From an uncultured Chloroflexia bacterium (lineage in GTDB: Bacteria > Chloroflexota > Chloroflexia > Chloroflexales > Herpetosiphonaceae), in assembly GCA_963767035.1 (NCBI GenBank), contig CAVYBW010000001.1, positions 2,374,547 to 2,438,546 on the forward strand: 64,000 nt of DNA, read 5' to 3'. The notes below the pieces were generated by a model. It worked only from the letters and a program-made list of their open reading frames with translations, had not been told where the DNA came from and did not search any database. Below are positions 38,337-46,954 of this stretch, one piece after another. Made by a program: the position numbers and the translations under genes. Position 1 is the stretch's first letter. Each line of letters begins with the position of its first letter.

Positions 38337-38756
38337 ATGCAAGGATTATCAATTGGTGAGGTGGCAGCGCAAACGGGTTTACAGCCATCAGCAATTCGCT
38401 ATTATGAGCAGATGGGTTTGATTCCCAAACCGCAACGCTTCAATACGCGCCGCCGGTATGAGCCAGCAGTCTTGCAATGGATTGGCGTGATTAATTTGGC
38501 CCGCAAAGCTGGCTTCTCAATCGCCGAAGTTCAAACATTAATTCATGGCTTTTCGGAAGATACGCCACCATCAGCGCGTTGGCAGAGCATGGCTAGCAGC
38601 AAACTCGCTCAAGTAGCTCAGCAAATGCAGGCACTACAACAGATGCAAGCGTTGCTTAATCATGGCTTGGAATGCCAATGCTTGCGGCTCGAAGATTGTC
38701 GGGTTAGCAATGAGCAGGGTTGTAGCGAGGGGTGCAATGGAGCAAATCAAGCTTGA
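38337..38756 (+). CDS. MerR family transcriptional regulator, SoxR-like with C-terminal Cys cluster
   Basis: N-terminal HTH resembles SoxR; C-terminal ECQCLRLEDC (CxCx5C) then GCSEGC. Confidence 0.65.
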   Translation: MQGLSIGEVAAQTGLQPSAIRYYEQMGLIPKPQRFNTRRRYEPAVLQWIGVINLARKAGFSIAEVQTLIHGFSEDTPPSARWQSMASSKLAQVAQQMQALQQMQALLNHGLECQCLRLEDCRVSNEQGCSEGCNGANQA

Positions 38757-38773
38757 TCTGCTCCATTTGGTCG

Positions 38774-39535
38774 TTATTGAGCCAGTGGTTTGAGTTTGGT
38801 ACTAGGCTGAAGTGGGCGAGTGAAGAAGCGTAATAAGCCGCCAAACGCCAAGCCAACAATCAGCCAATACAAGCTGAGACCCGCCAACGACCAAGCCCGA
38901 AACTCGTTGACCAACTCCATTGGCAAGCGAATTGGATCAGTCGATGCAGGGAAGACAAATTGGATAATGGCACCGCTGAGCACCAGCAACACGCTACTGC
39001 ATGCCCATTCTGACCAACGCCAGCGGGCTGCTAACCAACGCCCAAGCGTCAAAGCAACCCCAACGCCAACGGCTGAGGCCAGTTGAATGCCAAGGTAGAG
39101 TTGCTGGCGCAGATTGACTGTAGCTGGTTCGCCAACGCCTGGTGGATTGGCTGGATACTTCAAGAATGGCATCAAGGCACAGGCCCAAAATACCAACAAA
39201 CCAAAAATCAAGGCTGTGCGGCGCAAACCAAGCTGGCCAAAAAAGCCTTGGCCAAGGTGAAATACCACCGACAATAACAAAGCCCAACTGAGGCCATACA
39301 ATCCATAGCCAACAAATAAGCCAATTTTTTGGCCGTTGCGGCTAACAATTGGCTCGTCGCTACCAACATGCGGAGCTTCGTTGAGTGTATGATTCACCGC
39401 TTCATAGCCAATTGCTTGCTCAATTAACGGCTCGGTGAAGAATAGATGAAAGGTTGCGACAACCGTACCTGCCAGCAAAACTGCCAGCAACAGCGACTTG
39501 AGCACAACCCCAAAGGAAATTCGTGGCATCAGCAT
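38774..39535 (-). CDS. cbtA: putative cobalt transporter subunit CbtA-like membrane protein
   Basis: 253 aa, 5-6 TM, His/Glu-containing loops; directly downstream of a CbtB-like peptide gene. Confidence 0.5.
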   Translation of the reverse strand: MLMPRISFGVVLKSLLLAVLLAGTVVATFHLFFTEPLIEQAIGYEAVNHTLNEAPHVGSDEPIVSRNGQKIGLFVGYGLYGLSWALLLSVVFHLGQGFFGQLGLRRTALIFGLLVFWACALMPFLKYPANPPGVGEPATVNLRQQLYLGIQLASAVGVGVALTLGRWLAARWRWSEWACSSVLLVLSGAIIQFVFPASTDPIRLPMELVNEFRAWSLAGLSLYWLIVGLAFGGLLRFFTRPLQPSTKLKPLAQ

Positions 39536-39540
39536 CTCGC

Positions 39541-39777
39541 TTAGTGGCAGGGCATGCCGTTAACATGGCGGCTATCATGAACCGATTCGTGAATTAGATT
39601 TTGGCTGTAGGCAACTTGGCCTTGAATCAAACTGAGCAGTTGGCCTTGATCCAACGCCATCAAGAAAAACAATACTAAACCCAAGGTTAACGAAACCAAA
39701 TAGGCTCGCCATTGAGGTTTGGCAACCTGTGAAACGTCAGTTAACATGAATCCTCCTACACAAACACCAAGCAGCAC
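39541..39777 (-). CDS. cbtB: putative CbtB-like small membrane protein with His-rich C-terminus
   Basis: 78 aa; single TM; C-terminal HESVHDSRHVNGMPCH. Confidence 0.5.
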   Translation of the reverse strand: MLLGVCVGGFMLTDVSQVAKPQWRAYLVSLTLGLVLFFLMALDQGQLLSLIQGQVAYSQNLIHESVHDSRHVNGMPCH

Positions 39778-39857
39778 GCGGCCAACGCCGGTGCATCAAT
39801 CCCAGTTTAGCGCCAATTAATCGGGCTGAATGGCGCAAGTATAGAAGTCTGTCCAAC

Positions 39858-41936
39858 TCATGTCAAATGTTTGTAACGCAATAATCGCGCAGAATTGGCC
39901 ATAATGCCTAAATCGGGCAATGATTGCGCTGCTGCCGCCAAGACTGGGGGCAAGATCCCAAGCGCTGCCAAACTAAGGCCAATCAGATTATAGGCCACGG
40001 TAAAGCCAAGATTAGCTTTGACGATGCGCATGGTACGCAAAGCTAAGGCCAGCACTTGCGGAACCAAACCCCAATCATCGCGCAGCAAAACCACATGAGC
40101 AGCATCGAGCGCAACCGCCGTGCCTGCAAAGCCCATGGCAATGCCCACATGCGCTTGAGCCAAGGCTGGTGCGTCGTTGACTCCATCGCCAATCATCACC
40201 ACATGCTGGCCTTGGGCCTGATAACGCCGCACAATTGCTAATTTATCGGCAGGCAATAATTCGGCTTGATACTCAATGCCTAATTGTATGGCAATAGTCG
40301 CCGCAACCGCCTGATTATCACCAGTCAACATTTCAAGTTTGTTAATCCCCAATTGGCGTAATTGGGCAATCGCTGGCGCAACATCAGCCCGCAAGCGATC
40401 GGCACAGGCAATCAAACCGAGTACCGTTTGGCCACGCATGACCCAAATAACCGTTTGGCCTTGTTGTTCTAAAGTTTGGGCTTGGTGTTGCAAGGGGTGC
40501 TTACCAATCAGCCGTTGATGCCCAACAACCACCGTTTGGCCATCAATCAACGCTTGAACTCCCGATCCGGCCATAGCCTTGAATTCGCTGATTGGGAGCA
40601 GCCTACGCTTTTGCGCCTTGGCGGCTTGGACAATTGCTTGGGCCAATGGATGCTCCGAATCTTGCTCAGCCGCCGCCCAACCTAGCACTTCATCCTCAGT
40701 TGCAGCTCCGTAAGCCACAATTTGGCTCACCGTCGGTTGGCCATGGGTCAAGGTGCCAGTTTTATCAATCAGCACAACGCTCGTTTTGGCCAGCGCTTCA
40801 AGATATTTACCACCTTTGATTAACATGCCATGTTTGGCCGCTGCGCCGATTGTCGCGAGCATGGCAACAGGCGTGGCCAAGGCAAATGAGCATGAACATG
40901 CAACCAACAATACCGCCGCCGTTGCCAAAGGATCGCGCTGAATCAAGAAGGTTAAGCCAGCAATCAGCGCCACAACAGGCAGATAATAGGCTGAAAAGGC
41001 ATCGCCAATCCGTTGAATTTCGGCTTTTTGGGCTTCAGCTTCTTCGACCAATTTAATCACCTGACCAAACGTGGTATCGTGCCCAATCGCCGTCACCTGA
41101 ATGCGTAAACTGCCGGCGGTTGCCAAGGTTGCGGCAAAAACGTGGCTGCCTACGCTTGCCTCAATCGGCATTGATTCGCCAGTAATTGTGGCTTGATTCA
41201 GGCTGGCACTGCCACGTAGCACAATTCCATCAACCGGAATCAAATCTCCAGGCCGCACGACGACGAGATCACCAACTTGCACGGCATCGATCGGGAGCTG
41301 AAATTCAGCGCCATCACGCTCAACTCGCGCCAAGGTTGGGGCTAAGGCTGTTAGTTCTTTAACCGCACGGCGGGCTTGAGTCGAGGTAAATTGCTCAACA
41401 TACTCGCCAATCCGCATAAAGAGTACGACGAGCAGCGCGGTTGGCCATTGACCAATCGCCAGCGCGGCAAGCACCCCAATGCTCATCAAACTATGCGAAA
41501 GCACAGTTTTACGCCATGCCGCTTGTAGCACTCGCCAAAAAATCCGATAACCAGCGGCGAGCACCAAGCCAAAGCCAATTGGCCAAGGAACCCAATCGAT
41601 CAGCAGATCAAGCCAACCAAACTGCTCACCAAGCAAGCTTAGCAGCAATACTACTAACACAATGCCACCAAAGAGCACCAATAGTGGTGCACCAGCAGGC
41701 TGAACCTGATTTGTAGACGTGGTTTGGGGCACACGATAGCCCGCTTGTTCAATTGTTTTTACCAAGGCTTTTGGCTCAAGCACATGATCATCAAAGGTAA
41801 TCAAGGCTTTTTCAGCCGAAAACAATACCTGCGCCTGGACTACCCCAGTTAATTCACCCAAGCGAGCTTGAATTTGTTGGGCACAACTCGAACAATCCAT
41901 ACCTTGAATTGGCAGGGTTATGGTTTGCTGGCTCAT
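39858..41936 (-). CDS. heavy-metal translocating P1B-type ATPase with N-terminal HMA domain
   Basis: 692 aa; GMDCSSC metal-binding site, DKTGTLT, SEHPL, GDGVNDAPAL; unusual TM6 motif CSC in place of CPC. Confidence 0.9.
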   Translation of the reverse strand: MSQQTITLPIQGMDCSSCAQQIQARLGELTGVVQAQVLFSAEKALITFDDHVLEPKALVKTIEQAGYRVPQTTSTNQVQPAGAPLLVLFGGIVLVVLLLSLLGEQFGWLDLLIDWVPWPIGFGLVLAAGYRIFWRVLQAAWRKTVLSHSLMSIGVLAALAIGQWPTALLVVLFMRIGEYVEQFTSTQARRAVKELTALAPTLARVERDGAEFQLPIDAVQVGDLVVVRPGDLIPVDGIVLRGSASLNQATITGESMPIEASVGSHVFAATLATAGSLRIQVTAIGHDTTFGQVIKLVEEAEAQKAEIQRIGDAFSAYYLPVVALIAGLTFLIQRDPLATAAVLLVACSCSFALATPVAMLATIGAAAKHGMLIKGGKYLEALAKTSVVLIDKTGTLTHGQPTVSQIVAYGAATEDEVLGWAAAEQDSEHPLAQAIVQAAKAQKRRLLPISEFKAMAGSGVQALIDGQTVVVGHQRLIGKHPLQHQAQTLEQQGQTVIWVMRGQTVLGLIACADRLRADVAPAIAQLRQLGINKLEMLTGDNQAVAATIAIQLGIEYQAELLPADKLAIVRRYQAQGQHVVMIGDGVNDAPALAQAHVGIAMGFAGTAVALDAAHVVLLRDDWGLVPQVLALALRTMRIVKANLGFTVAYNLIGLSLAALGILPPVLAAAAQSLPDLGIMANSARLLRYKHLT

Positions 41937-42277
41937 TCGGCTGCTCCAGGATAGCGGGTGCAGGCATACACACCGTAGGCAACATCGGCCAGCAAACTTG
42001 CAGCAAGCGTAATCAACTCACCAACCCGGGGATCGCTTAATCGATAGCAGACAAAGCGGCCTTGCTGTTAGCGCAGTACCAAGCCACAATCGTGCAAACA
42101 GCTAAGATGATTGGAAACATTCGATTGGCTCAATTGGGTCGCGGCAACGATTGCCGAAACCGTCAATGGCTGATGGCAAATTGCCTCTAGCACCCGCAAA
42201 CGGGAAGCATCAGCCAAGCCGCGAAAAAGCTTGGCCTTCAAGTCTACCAAGTCGGTTTGAATAATTGGATTCATCAT
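41933..42277 (-). pseudogene. ArsR/SmtB family metalloregulator interrupted by an in-frame TAA at 42068-42070 (nonsense mutation or read error)
   Basis: ORF MMNPIIQ...HDCGLVLR stops at TAA; the same frame continues QQGRFVCYRLSDPRVGELITLAASLLADVAYGVYACTRYPGAAE to a TGA overlapping the ATPase ATG (ATGA coupling); full length 114 codons. Confidence 0.7.
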
Positions 42278-42407: not shown

Positions 42408-43097
42408 TTACTTTGCGTCGTCGATGGCGCTTTGCAGAGCGCTTTGGCTAAGGCTCGAAACGTCTTTGCCATTGACGAAGAAACTGGGTGTGCCACGAAC
42501 ATTGAGTGCTTGTGCATCAGCATTATCACGCTCGATTTTTTGCATAATTGCTGGATCGCTGAGATCCTTGGCAAATTTATCGCCATCGAGGCCCAGCTCT
42601 TGCGCATATTGCACCATCAAAGCGGTTTGCGGTGTTTGTTTTTCGCCCCATTCACCTTGTTTGTTGAATAAAAGCTCTTGCATCTCCCAATATTTGCCTT
42701 GGTTGCCAGCGGCTTCAGTAGCGGCCATCGCCAAGACCGAATTGTTGTGCAAGGGGAAATAGCGTACTACTAAGCGCACGTTATCGCCATTTTGCGCCAA
42801 TAAATCCTTGACAACCGGGAAGAAGGCGCGACATGATTCACATTCGGGGTCAAGAAATTCAACGATCGTCACGGGTGCGTCGGTCTTGCCCAAAACTGGG
42901 CTATCGGCATAAACCAAGCGCGAAACATCAACCGTTGGGGCTGGCTCAGTTCCAGCGCGGGTCAGCAGCACCACGGCCACAATCAGCAGCACTGGCACAC
43001 TCAACCAAAGTAACATTTTGACTTCACGCGGCAACCCACCTTGGGGCTTGCGGGTACGGCTTTGGCGTTTTTTGGTGGTAGCAACAGATTTATTCAT
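42408..43097 (-). CDS. DsbA family thiol:disulfide oxidoreductase, membrane-anchored
   Basis: about 229 aa from MNKSVATT; N-terminal TM; CESC active site; RBS AAGGAG. Confidence 0.8.
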   Translation of the reverse strand: MNKSVATTKKRQSRTRKPQGGLPREVKMLLWLSVPVLLIVAVVLLTRAGTEPAPTVDVSRLVYADSPVLGKTDAPVTIVEFLDPECESCRAFFPVVKDLLAQNGDNVRLVVRYFPLHNNSVLAMAATEAAGNQGKYWEMQELLFNKQGEWGEKQTPQTALMVQYAQELGLDGDKFAKDLSDPAIMQKIERDNADAQALNVRGTPSFFVNGKDVSSLSQSALQSAIDDAK

Positions 43098-43584
43098 GAT
43101 CAAACTCCTTAGCTGGTTTAGCAAATAACAAAGCAACGATGATAACGCTGAAGGCGACCCATGCGAGTAGCGGAATCGTAATAAAGCCATACCAGTTGAT
43201 CCAACGGGCAAGGCACGAAACCCCGGCGCTGCACGGCGCAAGCTCAGCCGAAATCACGCCATAGGTCAGTAAGCAGTGATAGCTCGCAACGAGCCAGCCG
43301 CCAATGCTCAACGGCAGCGCATACCAGCGCATCGCCGGATCACGCCGAATAATCCCCACAGTGAGAATTGCCACCAGTGGATACATCAGAATCCGTTGAT
43401 ACCAACACAAATTACAGGGCGGGAAACCGCGAACTTCGCTAAAGTAGAGGCTGCCAAGCGTTGCGACAACCGCTTGAAGCCACGCTAAATAACCAAGATT
43501 TTGGCGGACACGCTGTCCAAATGAAATAATTTGGCGGTCATCAGGGCTATCGAGCGCCGATGATTCAATCGTTGAGGGTTGCAT
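43090..43584 (-). CDS. disulfide bond formation protein B (DsbB/BdbC family)
   Basis: about 164 aa from MQPSTIESS; CNLCWYQR and second Cys pair CSAGVSC; 4 TM; overlaps the dsbA start by 8 nt. Confidence 0.75.
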   Translation of the reverse strand: MQPSTIESSALDSPDDRQIISFGQRVRQNLGYLAWLQAVVATLGSLYFSEVRGFPPCNLCWYQRILMYPLVAILTVGIIRRDPAMRWYALPLSIGGWLVASYHCLLTYGVISAELAPCSAGVSCLARWINWYGFITIPLLAWVAFSVIIVALLFAKPAKEFDHE

Positions 43585-43683
43585 AACATCCTTCTTTGGG
43601 TACTGTTTGTCGATCACGACCAGATCAGCCACGATCATAAATAATGATCAGGCAGATTGGCAATTAACAAGTGGAATGAAGGA

Positions 43684-44007
43684 TTAAATGCTTTTAGGAG
43701 GGGGAACTATTAAGCCATAACTTGGCGAGCGGTAGTGCAACTGATCAGGCATCCAATGCAGTTGATCAGCCACGAGGATTAATTCAAACTGGTCGGCAGC
43801 CACGACAAATGGAGCAACATGGCTGACACAGGCATCACTTGGTGATTTTGCCGGAGTTGAGATTGGCTGTTCGGCATGATGCTCATCGGTAAACCCTTGG
43901 CTTACTTGGGTTGCGCAAGGATACTGATAGCTCATGAGGATTCGTGGTTGGCATGGCGCAAGCACTAACGGAATCAGCAGCAACACAATCGTGCTGAGCC
44001 ACGTCAT
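43684..44007 (-). CDS. small secreted protein with YPC motif and C-terminal VPPPKSI
   Basis: about 107 aa from MTWLSTIVLLLIPLVLAPC; paralog of the divergent 44163-44510 gene. Confidence 0.5.
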   Translation of the reverse strand: MTWLSTIVLLLIPLVLAPCQPRILMSYQYPCATQVSQGFTDEHHAEQPISTPAKSPSDACVSHVAPFVVAADQFELILVADQLHWMPDQLHYRSPSYGLIVPPPKSI

Positions 44008-44162
44008 AGTGCGTAAAATGTGGAATTCACGAGCCATACAAGCAACCTAATATCCTTAATTCGTTAACTATACTATACCAAAATCAGCCCAAAAGACCAA
44101 ATTTGGCGTTTGCCAATCAGTTTGCTATAGTACAGATTGTGGTTAAATGGGCGGAAACAAAC

Positions 44163-44510
44163 ATGGCATTCGAACAATCATTTTTGAGCTATTGTTGGCT
44201 AAGCAGCCTAATTGTGCTGATTCTTTTGCCAATTGGCCAAGCCAATCAACCCCAGCACGCGCTGCGCTGGTGGTTTTACCCATGTATGCCACAATTGAAC
44301 GATGCGCCGCAATCAAGCCCCGAAGCGCCACTCTCGCTGCCATTTAACCCAAACCTTGAGCATGGCTATGCCCAATTGAGCTGGCTTGTGCCAAATGCCT
44401 TCCTTGCGCTAAGTCCGCTCAAGCAACGTTGGCGTTATTGGGCAATGCCGCTGTTGAACTACGCCATGTGGTTTCAGCCGCAATACGTGCCACCCCCAAA
44501 AACTCTTTAA
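44163..44510 (+). CDS. small secreted protein with YPC motif and C-terminal VPPPKTL (paralog)
   Basis: about 115 aa from MAFEQSFLSYCWLSSLIVLILLPIGQA; shares signal-YPC-...-VPPPK(S/T)(I/L) architecture. Confidence 0.5.
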   Translation: MAFEQSFLSYCWLSSLIVLILLPIGQANQPQHALRWWFYPCMPQLNDAPQSSPEAPLSLPFNPNLEHGYAQLSWLVPNAFLALSPLKQRWRYWAMPLLNYAMWFQPQYVPPPKTL

Positions 44511-44581
44511 CTATTTCAATCGTCCAATGCTTGGTTAATGCCCACTGCTGTGGGGTATTTTGTATTTTTTGAGGTTTTGTA

Positions 44582-44959
44582 ATGCTGTTACGATATGGAC
44601 AATTGATCCTGCTTAGTTTAATGATGGTTAGCTTACTGGGTTGTAGCCGCACACCCAGCGATGATCCACGCTTGACGATCAGCCTTGAGCAAACACCGAG
44701 CGCAATGGGTGGGCAAACAATCGTTTTGACGATTAACGATGGCACAACGCCGCTCGACAACGCCAATGTACAGCTTGAAGCAACCATGACCCACGCTGGC
44801 ATGCCTTCGCAAATTGTGCCAATGCAGGCACTCGGCGCTGGCAAATATCAGGCGAGCATTGATTTTTCGATGCTTGGCGAATGGGTGTTGATTGTGAATG
44901 TGACTGAAGCGAATGGCGCGACGATGCAACGAACCTTGCCAGCCTTCACGATTCAATAA
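44582..44959 (+). CDS. YtkA/FixH-like lipoprotein (Ig-like fold, Met-rich motif)
   Basis: 125 aa; lipobox LLGCS; TMTHAGMPSQIVPMQALGAGKYQASIDFSMLGEWVLIVNV matches the YtkA-like pattern. Confidence 0.55.
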   Translation: MLLRYGQLILLSLMMVSLLGCSRTPSDDPRLTISLEQTPSAMGGQTIVLTINDGTTPLDNANVQLEATMTHAGMPSQIVPMQALGAGKYQASIDFSMLGEWVLIVNVTEANGATMQRTLPAFTIQ

Positions 44960-44976: not shown

Positions 44977-46389
44977 ATGCAACAGCTGCAAGCAATCGAT
45001 TTGCTGAAACTGCCGGGCTTGCGTTGGCTTGGGCGTTGGCGTTATGCCCGTTTTGCGCTGCAAATGCCACTCTTTGCCTTGGCAATGCTGATGGTGTGGG
45101 ATGGATTGACGGGCGCGCAATTAGCTCCTAAAAATCGTGCAACCGTGATTGTGTGGGTGCATTATCGCGGCTTTTTGATGTTGGCCTTGTTGGTGGTTGG
45201 CAACCTGTTTTGCATGGCCTGCCCCTTTATGTTGCCGCGCAATCTGGCGCGCCGCATCATCAAGCCGCGATTCAAATGGCCAACATGGCTGCGCAACAAA
45301 TGGCTCGCAGCGGCCTTGTTGGTGCTGTTTTTCTTTGCCTACGAGCGCTTTGATTTGTGGGCCTCGCCGTGGTGGACGGCAATGCTGATTGTCAGCTATT
45401 TCGCGGCAGCCTTGTTGATCGATAGCAGCTTTCAGGGTGCGCCATTTTGTAAATATGTCTGTCCGTTGGGCCAATTCAATATGTTGAGTTCAACCCTTTC
45501 GCCAATCGAGGTAGCAGTGCGCCAGCCCCAACGCTGTCAAACCTGCCAAACCAAAGATTGTATCGTGGGGCGTGATGATCAACCTGGCTGTGAGTTGTGG
45601 CTGTTTCAACCCAAAAAGGTCGGCAATCTCGATTGCACGCTGTGTTTGGATTGTATTCATGCCTGTCCTCACGATAACATTGGCTTGTTGGCGCGCGTGC
45701 CAGGCCAAGAATTGATTAGCCTACAACCACGCTCAGGCATTGGTAAAATCGAAGAGCGTAGCGATTTCAGTTTGCTAATCTTGGTGTTTACTTGGGGCGC
45801 GTTGCTCAACGCCTTTGGCATGATCAGCCCAGTGTATAGCTTTTACAATTGGCTGACCAGTCAATTTGCGATTACCAGCGAAACCTTTTTGCTGAGCGTG
45901 GTTTTTATTTTGGCCTTGGTAATCGAGCCAGTTGTCTTGTTGGGCGGGGCAGCATGGCTTTTTCGCCGAATTACTGGCCATAAAGAACGCTTGATCGCAA
46001 TCATCAATCGTTTTATGAAGGGCTTTTTGCCAATTGGCGTTGCTATGTGGACAGCGCACTATGCTTTTCACTTTATCATTGGCTTTTGGACAATTTTGCC
46101 TGTGCTGCGCTCGTTATTGGCCGAAGCAGGCATCACGTTTAGCTGGATGCCGGTAACCGGATTAAGCCCACTTGTACCGCAAGCAATGATTTATCCCTTT
46201 CAAATGGGCATGATTTTGCTCGGCAGTGTGCTTTCAGCAGTGATCACTTGGCAAACGACCACCACAATTAGCAAACACCGCCAACGCTGGGCTTGGCTGC
46301 CATGGGCGCTGGTCATCGTGGCGATGGCTGGCAGCGCGATGTGGCTTTTGAGCCAGCCCATGGATATGCGTGGCATTCTAGAAGGATAA
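44977..46389 (+). CDS. FixG/CcoG/NapH-like membrane ferredoxin-type protein (putative cupric reductase)
   Basis: 470 aa; TM CMACPF motif; CQTCQTKDC and CTLCLDCIHACP 4Fe-4S motifs; about 6 TM. Confidence 0.65.
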   Translation: MQQLQAIDLLKLPGLRWLGRWRYARFALQMPLFALAMLMVWDGLTGAQLAPKNRATVIVWVHYRGFLMLALLVVGNLFCMACPFMLPRNLARRIIKPRFKWPTWLRNKWLAAALLVLFFFAYERFDLWASPWWTAMLIVSYFAAALLIDSSFQGAPFCKYVCPLGQFNMLSSTLSPIEVAVRQPQRCQTCQTKDCIVGRDDQPGCELWLFQPKKVGNLDCTLCLDCIHACPHDNIGLLARVPGQELISLQPRSGIGKIEERSDFSLLILVFTWGALLNAFGMISPVYSFYNWLTSQFAITSETFLLSVVFILALVIEPVVLLGGAAWLFRRITGHKERLIAIINRFMKGFLPIGVAMWTAHYAFHFIIGFWTILPVLRSLLAEAGITFSWMPVTGLSPLVPQAMIYPFQMGMILLGSVLSAVITWQTTTTISKHRQRWAWLPWALVIVAMAGSAMWLLSQPMDMRGILEG

Positions 46390-46393
46390 TTGC

Positions 46394-46954
46394 ATGCAAA
46401 CACTGCAACGCTGGATCATTCGCTTACGTGGAATGTTTATAGCCAGCCTAATACTTGTGAGCCTTGTGCCAGTGCAGCCAGCAACGGCACACTTTGGCGA
46501 ACCCTATACCGTGCTGTATGATCAAAAAGTTGGCGATTTTACGCTCTCGATGAAGGCCGACCCCGACGTTGGCACTGGCACGTTTTTCAGCGATCTGGAG
46601 CTGCCGAGCAGTATGGCCGATGGCGAAGTTACGATCGCAATTCAAGCCGTGGCTGATGCGAATACTACCAAACCCAGCACCTCAAGTGCGAGTAGTCAAA
46701 GCAGCAACCACAAAGCCAGCATCGAACAACCAATTGAGTTTGACCAAGAGGGGTATTGGACGCTTGATGTCACGGTTACTGCTGGAGATCGCACTGGTCA
46801 ACATCAATTTAAAGTGCTGGTTACACCACCATTCCCGCCATGGATCACGACGCTGATCTGTTTAGCGCCATTTTTGGTGGTAGCAGCAATTTGGACCCTG
46901 ACCATGCGCCGCAATGCCCTGCTCAAGCAACAAGCAGAGAATAACGAGCATTAG
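46394..46954 (+). CDS. hypothetical secreted protein with C-terminal TM anchor
   Basis: 186 aa; signal peptide; Ser-rich linker; 5-nt gap to the upstream gene. Confidence 0.4.
   Translation: MQTLQRWIIRLRGMFIASLILVSLVPVQPATAHFGEPYTVLYDQKVGDFTLSMKADPDVGTGTFFSDLELPSSMADGEVTIAIQAVADANTTKPSTSSASSQSSNHKASIEQPIEFDQEGYWTLDVTVTAGDRTGQHQFKVLVTPPFPPWITTLICLAPFLVVAAIWTLTMRRNALLKQQAENNEH

Follow-up and report, generated by a model that had tools for sequence, protein, structure and literature searches.

What is the role of two small head-to-head genes that separate dsbB-dsbA from a copper-related gene set and belong to no described family? The question is raised by a 64,000-nucleotide stretch of DNA from an uncultured Chloroflexia bacterium of the Herpetosiphonaceae (GenBank assembly GCA_963767035.1, contig CAVYBW010000001.1, positions 2,374,547 to 2,438,546), hereafter the window, whose numbering is used for all positions unless another contig is named. 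The two genes, here called A and B, head the operons A-dsbB-dsbA and B-ytkA-fesM-p186, respectively. Our analyses suggested, with about even chances of being right, that A and B are membrane-targeted leader proteins acting in cis on the operons they head, in which a VPPPK sequence close to the C-terminus would serve as a translational pause or arrest motif. This reading draws on the first-gene position of both genes, the polyproline run, the absence of a fold from the structure models, and a predicted pairing between the 3′ end of A and the ribosome-binding site of dsbB.

Gene A (43684-44037, minus strand) encodes 117 amino acids counted from the first ATG, and gene B (44163-44510, plus strand) encodes 115 amino acids counted from its ATG, with the two start codons 125 bp apart. 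A preliminary description of the locus, made from the sequence alone, had given a spacing of about 155 bp and a 107-aa A; these two values presume that A begins at Met11, while its length of 115 aa for B stands. The 117-aa form of A is supported since the N-termini of A and B align from Met1 (MA-x-E...). A TTG at 44103 would lengthen B to 135 aa, and the orthologs carry a stop codon just 5′ of the ATG, so this longer form is not conserved. As described before, both proteins contain a predicted signal or transmembrane segment near the N-terminus (approximately residues 11-27; Kyte-Doolittle maxima of 2.5 in A and 2.3 in B, with AlphaFold2 helices in both) and a YPC tripeptide, which is found at residues 39-41 in each. 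In A, the hydrophobic helix covers about residues 12-27, the middle of the protein is rich in Cys and His, and C29, H53, H54, C70 and H73 are invariant. In B, an acidic N-tail precedes the hydrophobic helix, and a conserved stretch SPLKQRWRYW..YAMWF and H67 were identified. The YPC cysteine is the one Cys common to A and B, and neither contains CxxxC.

A ends with LIVPPPKSI and B with QYVPPPKTL, so that two residues stand between VPPPK and the stop codon. The tail had been written as VPPPK(S/T)(I/L). VPPPK itself is invariant in both paralogs across at least five lineages, but the limitation to S or T did not hold, as S, A, F, N or T occurs there in the orthologs; the last residue is I, L or V. 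Within the window, A and B are the only ones among 556 stop-to-stop segments of at least 50 aa that have PPP within the last 10 residues, and the long open reading frames (ORFs) contain only two PPP in 16,174 residues. The VPPPK codons of A, which are the proposed ribosome pause site, lie at 43693-43707 on the minus strand (GTT CCC CCT CCT AAA) and vary at synonymous sites between lineages, and those of B lie at 44487-44501 on the plus strand (GTG CCA CCC CCA AAA), with every synonymous site invariant in seven loci. Structure prediction, which the preliminary description had proposed, was performed with AlphaFold2 and gave no globular fold or domain (mean pLDDT, the predicted local distance difference test, of 50-53): helices were placed only at residues 2-29 and 74-95 of A (mean pLDDT 50) and at residues 2-27 and 83-103 of B (mean pLDDT 53), and the second helix of both models is of low confidence.

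A and B are real coding genes under purifying selection. In comparisons with four or five lineages, at a synonymous divergence (dS) of 0.5-0.6, the ratio of nonsynonymous to synonymous rates (dN/dS) was 0.11-0.19 for A and 0.22-0.28 for B; neighbouring genes showed 0.03-0.12, with dsbB at about 0.10. The corresponding ratio of observed proportions (pN/pS) revealed tight constraint in both genes on the N-terminus with YPC and on residues 83-105 (0.09-0.26), and higher values in the middle of the protein (0.26 in A and 0.53 in B). Synonymous divergence (pS) over the last 10 codons of B was 0.09, compared with about 0.45 elsewhere. In addition, A and B are divergent collinear paralogs, as had been claimed. 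Their collinear alignment shows 27-29% identity, and the global alignment exceeds shuffled sequences with z = 10; leaving out the hydrophobic segment lowers z to 5.5, and leaving out the tail as well lowers it to 2.4. Profile-profile comparison with hhalign gave a full-length match (E = 8.5e-5, probability 60%), and phmmer cross-matches between the two families reached about 3e-4.

Orthologs of both genes with 76-89% identity were found in H. llansteffanensis, in strain NSE202 and in several metagenomic contigs. The preliminary description had allowed that no homolog might share the C-terminal motif or that the ORFs might be unconserved; the invariant VPPPK and the dN/dS range of 0.11-0.28 speak against both. 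Its authoring model had not recognised the family, and our searches led to the same result. Scans of A and B against Pfam-A (hmmscan, E ≤ 1) and NCBIfam returned no family, word-indexed homolog searches with A and B returned Herpetosiphon orthologs only, and a profile hidden Markov model of both paralog families matched just two Herpetosiphon clusters among 1.84 billion representative proteins. A match to lpg1681_fam (E = 0.12, 12.8 bits against a cut-off of 95) was taken as noise. As judged by these searches, relatives of A and B that can be recognised from sequence are confined to Herpetosiphon.

Both genes are co-directional with the genes downstream, the stop codon of A lying 99 nt 5′ of the dsbB start and that of B 71 nt 5′ of ytkA. 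The dsbB gene (43090-43584, minus strand) encodes a BdbC-type disulfide oxidoreductase (Pfam DsbB; NCBIfam PRK03113 at 2e-40). Its true start is Met19 of the longest ORF, which is preceded by the Shine-Dalgarno sequence (SD) GAAGGA and gives 164 aa in all orthologous loci. The end of dsbB is overlapped by 8 nt by a gene for a dsbA-like thioredoxin-fold protein of 229 aa (42408-43097, minus strand; Pfam Thioredoxin_4 and DSBA; orthologs 228-229 aa). On the other side, the ytkA-like gene (44582-44959, plus strand) encodes a lipoprotein of 125 aa with the motif MTHAGM (Pfam YtkA at 1e-9). These matches agree with the context given earlier, namely dsbB-dsbA on one side and a YtkA- and FixG-like module on the other. 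The seven-gene unit, dsbA-dsbB-A on one strand and B-ytkA-fesM-p186 on the other, is identical in every Herpetosiphon locus, and its flanks vary.

A way in which A could act on dsbB is suggested by predicted RNA pairing. RNAalifold pairs CAU..A-UCCUUC at the 3′ end of A with GAAGGAU..AUG at the start of dsbB. The 5′ arm of this long-range helix (43678-43690, minus strand) consists of CAU across the final two sense codons of the gene, the A in the stop codon UAA, and the anti-Shine-Dalgarno element UCCUUC directly after the stop, and it is invariant in all lineages; the 3′ arm (43582-43594, minus strand) contains the dsbB Shine-Dalgarno sequence GAAGGAU and the ATG start. The loop of about 90 nt between the arms varies and carries indels, whereas the arms are constant. 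In six of seven loci, the dsbB SD paired with the 3′ element of A with a probability of 0.63-1.0. When sliding windows were compared for duplex formation, the A element ranked first of about 410 windows in three lineages, with -12 to -16 kcal/mol compared with a mean of -7 ± 2, and 0.2-0.7% of shuffles reached the energy of the A-dsbB duplex (p 0.002-0.007).

Downstream of B, a conserved terminator-like element, the hairpin CCCAC-UGCU-GUGGG with a U-run, extends over 44541-44574 on the plus strand. The hairpin itself (44541-44554) is conserved in all lineages, and the U-run reaches the ytkA SD GAGG (44571-44574); in the RNAalifold structure, both the U-run and GAGG are paired with the PPPK codons. 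Two specific models for B were tried and rejected. Masking of the ytkA SD by B was unsupported by partition-function folds, alternative contexts, the sliding-window duplex test and shuffles, and an antiterminator in which the PPP codons would pair with the 3′ arm of the hairpin at 44541-44554 comprises only about 5 bp and is lost in the L083 lineage. A search of the region 43300-44800 against Rfam (E ≤ 1) returned no match.

Small ORFs with a similar tail were also found outside Herpetosiphon. On three Chloroflexota-like contigs whose FesM is 55-59% identical, small membrane ORFs with a PPP[KR] tail stand upstream of copper operons: L091 476-919, which ends with EPPPPRITPV upstream of ytkA; L175 3-359, which ends with VPPPRCCTTA upstream of ytkA; and L176 1699-2052, which ends with TPPPRFI upstream of SCO1. 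The L091 ORF carries SWL, VPCAPQ and RSWRWEW motifs collinear with B, and hhalign against the B family gave a local match only (E 0.005, probability 7%); judged from the collinear motifs and its position, this ORF is likely, but not proven, to be a distant B homolog. The L175 and L176 ORFs look unrelated and have in common only a membrane segment and the PPP[KR] tail, and the polyproline run is the sole element common to all five types of upstream ORF (uORF). Pairing with the downstream gene recurred on two of these contigs. On L091, it is predicted between the last codons, GAUAACUCCU, and the SD of ytkA, AAGGAGUUUAUC, over about 250 nt (rank 3 of 664, p = 0.01), and on L175 between the region of the stop and the start codon of ytkA (p = 0.015); on L176, pairing with the downstream start region was not significant. 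Among the matches listed, covering 80 genome and 80 metagenome loci, no membrane ORF with a PPP, RAPP or RGPP tail was found beside the FesM cassette outside Herpetosiphon; these roughly 160 FesM loci are mostly from Acidobacteriota and show about 50% identity, which leaves Chloroflexota under-sampled. The recurrence on L091, L175 and L176, together with the absence from the roughly 160 FesM loci of other phyla, suggests that the PPP[KR] tail follows the position of first ORF in a copper or Dsb operon and not a protein fold. In addition, L178 encodes at 338-883, upstream of copCD, a His/Met-rich protein of 181 aa that contains a hydrophobic segment and whose tail is proline-rich (RPPLRPP...); it may represent a further copper sensor of the leader type that differs in its tail.

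Ribosomes form peptide bonds slowly on polyproline, an obstacle that elongation factor P relieves (EF-P; PMC10987492). In the mechanism that we favour, each leader would be translated first on its own transcript, and its hydrophobic segment would engage the membrane insertion or export machinery. V-P-P-P-K would then slow or arrest peptide-bond formation two codons before the stop by a polyproline stall. A ribosome at or just past VPPPK would hold the 3′ end of A single-stranded, a stretch that is otherwise predicted to pair with the SD and start codon of dsbB about 95 nt downstream, and pausing in A would thus unmask the translation of dsbB-dsbA. The length of the pause would be set by events on the exported nascent chain, the candidate residues being the YPC cysteine and C29, H53, H54, C70 and H73 of A, and the candidate inputs being copper binding or thiol oxidation, for which CutF offers a demonstrated case and the RAPP/RGPP uORFs a proposed one; EF-P availability may contribute as well. 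B would govern ytkA-fesM-p186 in the same general way, with the RNA step acting through attenuation of translation or of transcription. Ribosome stalling, the sensing input and the direction of regulation are what we infer from these features. A more specific form, which we regard as unlikely though worth stating, is that A is a co-translational Dsb monitor: its exported cysteines, acted on by DsbA or bound to copper, would set the dwell time on VPPPK and hence the amount of DsbB and DsbA, and B would do likewise for YtkA-FesM-P186.

Several observations weigh against this mechanism. The A helix has no covariation support because its arms never vary, and with the P site on the second or third Pro, UCCUUC would lie at or just past the leading edge of the ribosome; its coverage would be fuller if the ribosome paused at the stop codon. 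For B, single-sequence folds change with the context and disagree, and the complementarity between the end of the ORF and the ytkA start region is at chance level (rank 175 of 374, p 0.56); B also has no positively charged N-tail. The AlphaFold2 models of A and B were built on a six-sequence alignment. PPP stalls are normally relieved by EF-P, and the proline motif of CutF alone gave no detectable arrested product (PMC9973294). Furthermore, purifying selection spans the full length of the genes including the middle of A (0.26), which fits a stable functional protein too.

Such a protein is at the core of the possible, though rather less probable, alternative in which A and B are small, stable proteins that cross the membrane once and work in trans as accessory subunits, thiol or metal relay partners or chaperones of DsbB/DsbA and YtkA/FesM/P186. 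The YPC Cys would then be an active or ligand residue, the VPPPK-x-hydrophobic tail an interaction element or a recognition element for PDZ domains or tail-specific proteases, and the pairing between the end of A and the dsbB SD ordinary translational coupling that fixes stoichiometry. The dN/dS of 0.11-0.28 over the whole length, the invariant Cys and His in the middle of A, strict co-inheritance with both operons, the conservation of the last residue as hydrophobic and the lack of specific SD masking for B are all consistent with it. Yet structure prediction gave nothing beyond the transmembrane helix and a second helix of low confidence, the element that varies least is a polyproline run at just the position of known arrest motifs, and the L175 and L176 ORFs occupy the same upstream position while sharing only a membrane segment and PPP[KR]. 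Moreover, the YtkA-FesM-P186 cassette does without any such protein in at least eight phyla. The leader and accessory-protein readings are not mutually exclusive.

It is improbable, in our view, that PPPK is a constitutive EF-P-dependent throttle without sensing, which would impose a fixed low translation rate or coupling ratio or tie expression to EF-P activity or proline supply. Leader ORFs with proline codons such as mgtP provide a precedent, the polyproline run alone unites the five uORF types, and LPPP stalling in E. coli was relieved by EF-P; such a throttle nevertheless leaves the membrane segment, the invariant YPC and Cys/His, and the 80-aa spacer unexplained. The preliminary description had read VPPPK(S/T)(I/L) as a sorting, processing or recognition tag, with A and B as secreted cargo of a dedicated sortase-like enzyme or protease, and in its favour the tail is kept at the extreme C-terminus of two paralogs. 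Known signals have a hydrophobic helix and basic residues after the motif, while only two residues follow VPPPK here, so that neither A nor B resembles the sortase- and exosortase-type signals LPXTG, PEP-CTERM and GlyGly-CTERM. Among the neighbouring genes, none for a sortase, exosortase, rhombosortase or dedicated protease was found in any strain, either inside the conserved unit or around it to a distance of about 6 kb. A family with two members per genome region and no others among the 1.84 billion representatives is also atypical for a sorting system with many substrates, and we consider the tag very improbable.

The genes that B heads belong to a widespread cassette. FesM (44977-46389, plus strand, 470 aa) is a NapH/MauN/CcoG-like polytopic ferredoxin-type membrane protein (NCBIfam NapH/MauN at 4e-8); its homolog search returned 4889 matches, homologs are named FesM, ferredoxin or polyferredoxin, FesM being the NCBI name, and a literature search for FesM found nothing useful. 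The third gene, p186 (46394-46954, plus strand), encodes a protein that carries a signal peptide and, near the C-terminus, a transmembrane segment; its mature N-terminus is predicted to be HFGEPY (from AHFGEPY), and it showed no Pfam family match. Among the matches listed, the order and strand of YtkA-FesM-P186 (44582-46954 in the window) were kept in 80 of 80 genome loci by one count (L004-L082 and L096-L174 examined), with p186 found behind fesM in nearly all of 80 loci by another, and the cassette occurs in Acidobacteriota, Gemmatimonadota, Bacteroidota/Rhodothermales, Planctomycetota, Verrucomicrobiota, Abditibacteriota and Chloroflexota. In Acidobacteriota, a His-rich membrane protein of about 218 aa precedes it. 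In the closest relatives outside Herpetosiphon, which are Chloroflexota-like, FesM is found in long operons (L092 81-7372, L175 464-6490, L176 1156-6058 and L178 1764-8220) with SCO1/SenC, PCuAC (LpqE-like), CopC-CopD, thioredoxin-like, DUF3105 and DUF305 proteins, and the L092 neighbourhood also holds DsbB-DsbA. By the company it keeps in these operons, the FesM family is linked to copper trafficking. The presence of SCO1, PCuAC, CopCD and DsbB/DsbA beside FesM in relatives points to envelope copper and thiol-redox functions for the A/B module, in line with the periplasmic redox or metal role suggested in the preliminary description.

The slot beyond dsbA (38337-42277 in the window, compared with L001, L002, L083 and L089) holds variable metal genes depending on the strain: CbtA/CbtB; ArsR with an HMA P1B-ATPase; both, as in this window (cbtB at approximately 39547-39753); or genes for a major facilitator superfamily transporter and rhodanese. 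MerR and the seven-gene unit stay constant while this slot varies. The ArsR/SmtB-type regulator gene 5′ of the P1B-ATPase (41938-42277, minus strand) has an in-frame stop at codon 70, which is Gln in the H. llansteffanensis ortholog, and the conserved sequence continues to the normal end; as read from this comparison, the gene has a nonsense mutation or is a pseudogene.

The intergenic promoter region of A and B (44038-44162) is nearly invariant among lineages. The B promoter (plus strand) comprises TTGGCG (44103-08), a 17-nt spacer and TATAGT (44126-31), and direct reading of the sequence gave a putative A promoter on the minus strand with TTGGTC (44095-44100), a 17-nt spacer and TATAGT (44072-77). 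The same direct reading revealed a perfect palindrome, CCAAATTTGG (44097-44106), which is overlapped by a second perfect palindrome, TTGGCgtttGCCAA (44103-44116); the repeat finder had passed over both, their arms being shorter than 8 nt. Together (44097-44116) they sit between and over both -35 boxes and are a candidate shared operator for a putative regulator. In addition, the first 27 codons of A (43957-44037, minus strand) show a low pS of 0.14, compared with about 0.45 elsewhere, which suggests overlapping nucleotide-level constraint near the divergent promoter or the mRNA 5′ end.

Comparison with known nascent-chain regulators places A and B close to several described systems. Monitoring substrates of the arrest type have been sought as small unannotated uORFs that begin with a signal or transmembrane segment and, after a spacer of more than 30 aa, carry a conserved motif at the C-terminus (PMC10987492). 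Measured against this scheme of Fujiwara et al. 2024, A and B are small co-directional upstream ORFs in all Herpetosiphon loci, with a predicted N-terminal signal or transmembrane segment (hydropathy and AlphaFold2), an invariant VPPPK at the C-terminus and a spacer of about 80 aa; the genes downstream are dsbB/dsbA and ytkA/fesM/p186 instead of components of Sec or YidC. A comparable peptide is uA_LPPP of Planctomycetota, which has 115 aa with L110-PPP, stalls with Pro112, the second Pro, in the P site, is strong in B. subtilis and was relieved by EF-P in E. coli (PMC10987492). B, with 115 aa and V109-PPP112, is nearly identical to it in geometry, and A and B alike share its N-terminal signal and a hydrophobic residue plus PPP at about 110-113, two residues before the stop. 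In contrast, uA_LPPP sits upstream of secA and monitors secretion, its motif is LPPP and not VPPPK, and there is no sequence relationship; its stalling has been demonstrated (Fujiwara et al. 2024, PMC10987492), whereas that of A and B is what we infer.

CutF, encoded in the cutFOG operon of Rhodobacter capsulatus (DUF2946), has a Sec signal, a Cys motif and a C-terminus rich in proline with a positive charge close by (Ozturk et al. 2023, PMC9973294); a stem-loop hides the cutO SD, and CutF acts only in cis and responds to periplasmic copper (PMC9973294). Like CutF, A and B are shorter than 150 aa, come first in a copper-related operon, carry a predicted export signal and a cysteine in the putative exported part, have prolines and a neighbouring positive charge within the last 15 residues, and would act in cis; for A, a helix over the SD of the next gene is also predicted. 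Both pass the rule-based filters of Ozturk et al. for CutF-like proteins, although the single YPC cysteine stands in place of CxxxC or a similar Cys/His motif, the tail is VPPPK, and sequence similarity to CutF was not detectable. DUF2946 (PF11162) gave no match to A or B in Pfam-A (E ≤ 1) and none to the L091 and L176 uORFs at E ≤ 10. A and B further differ in forming a divergent paralog pair, in having dsbB-dsbA as one target operon and in belonging to Chloroflexota, where CutF-like proteins are scarce (PMC9973294).

With regard to the target genes, an enrichment of RAPP/RGPP uORFs has been described in front of genes for DsbA-family proteins, thioredoxin, YcnI and PCuAC (Fujiwara et al. 2025, PMC12992588). 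These peptides and CruR resemble A and B in being small, in being secreted or inserted in the membrane, in having a stall motif at the C-terminus, a presumed one in A and B, and in being encoded ahead of genes for oxidative folding and copper handling, and their conserved Cys and His have been proposed as sensors, as in A and B. However, their R-[AG]-P-P motif has a distinct stalling chemistry in the peptidyl-transferase centre, no R/Q/H-[AG]-P-P, RAGP or RAPG (RQH) motif was present near the C-terminus of A or B, and CruR of Bordetella pertussis acts via Rho-dependent termination (Roy et al. 2022, PMC9426467), unlike the mechanism proposed here. Regulators of the kind proposed here would be overlooked by screens restricted to particular motifs, such as RAPP/RGPP or DUF2946.

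The pairs SecM-secA, MifM-yidC2 and VemP-secDF2 share with A and B a targeting signal, a long spacer and an arrest site, a proposed one in A and B, a few codons before the stop, and in them a stalled ribosome opens an SD-masking helix, as proposed for A. They differ in their protein-localisation targets and unrelated arrest sequences, and force-driven release of the arrest has been demonstrated there. If our reading is true, sensors of the CutF and SecM type exist in Chloroflexota with an unrelated family and a V-P-P-P-K motif and gate DsbB/DsbA directly, and the paired divergent layout would offer a compact model for the tuning of one stall motif by different exported domains. If A is indeed a Dsb monitor, force- or ligand-gated control by nascent chains would extend from protein localisation to oxidative folding, with an undescribed polyproline-lysine stall motif and sequence family duplicated into a divergent two-sensor switch. 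The finding also offers a handle on YtkA-FesM-P186, which occurs in many phyla and is linked to SCO1, PCuAC and CopCD but has no assigned function. The concept itself, including DsbA-family targets, has already been published; the new elements are the sequence family, the use of VPPPK in Chloroflexota, the arrangement as a divergent pair of paralogs, and the dsbB-dsbA and ytkA-fesM-p186 targets.

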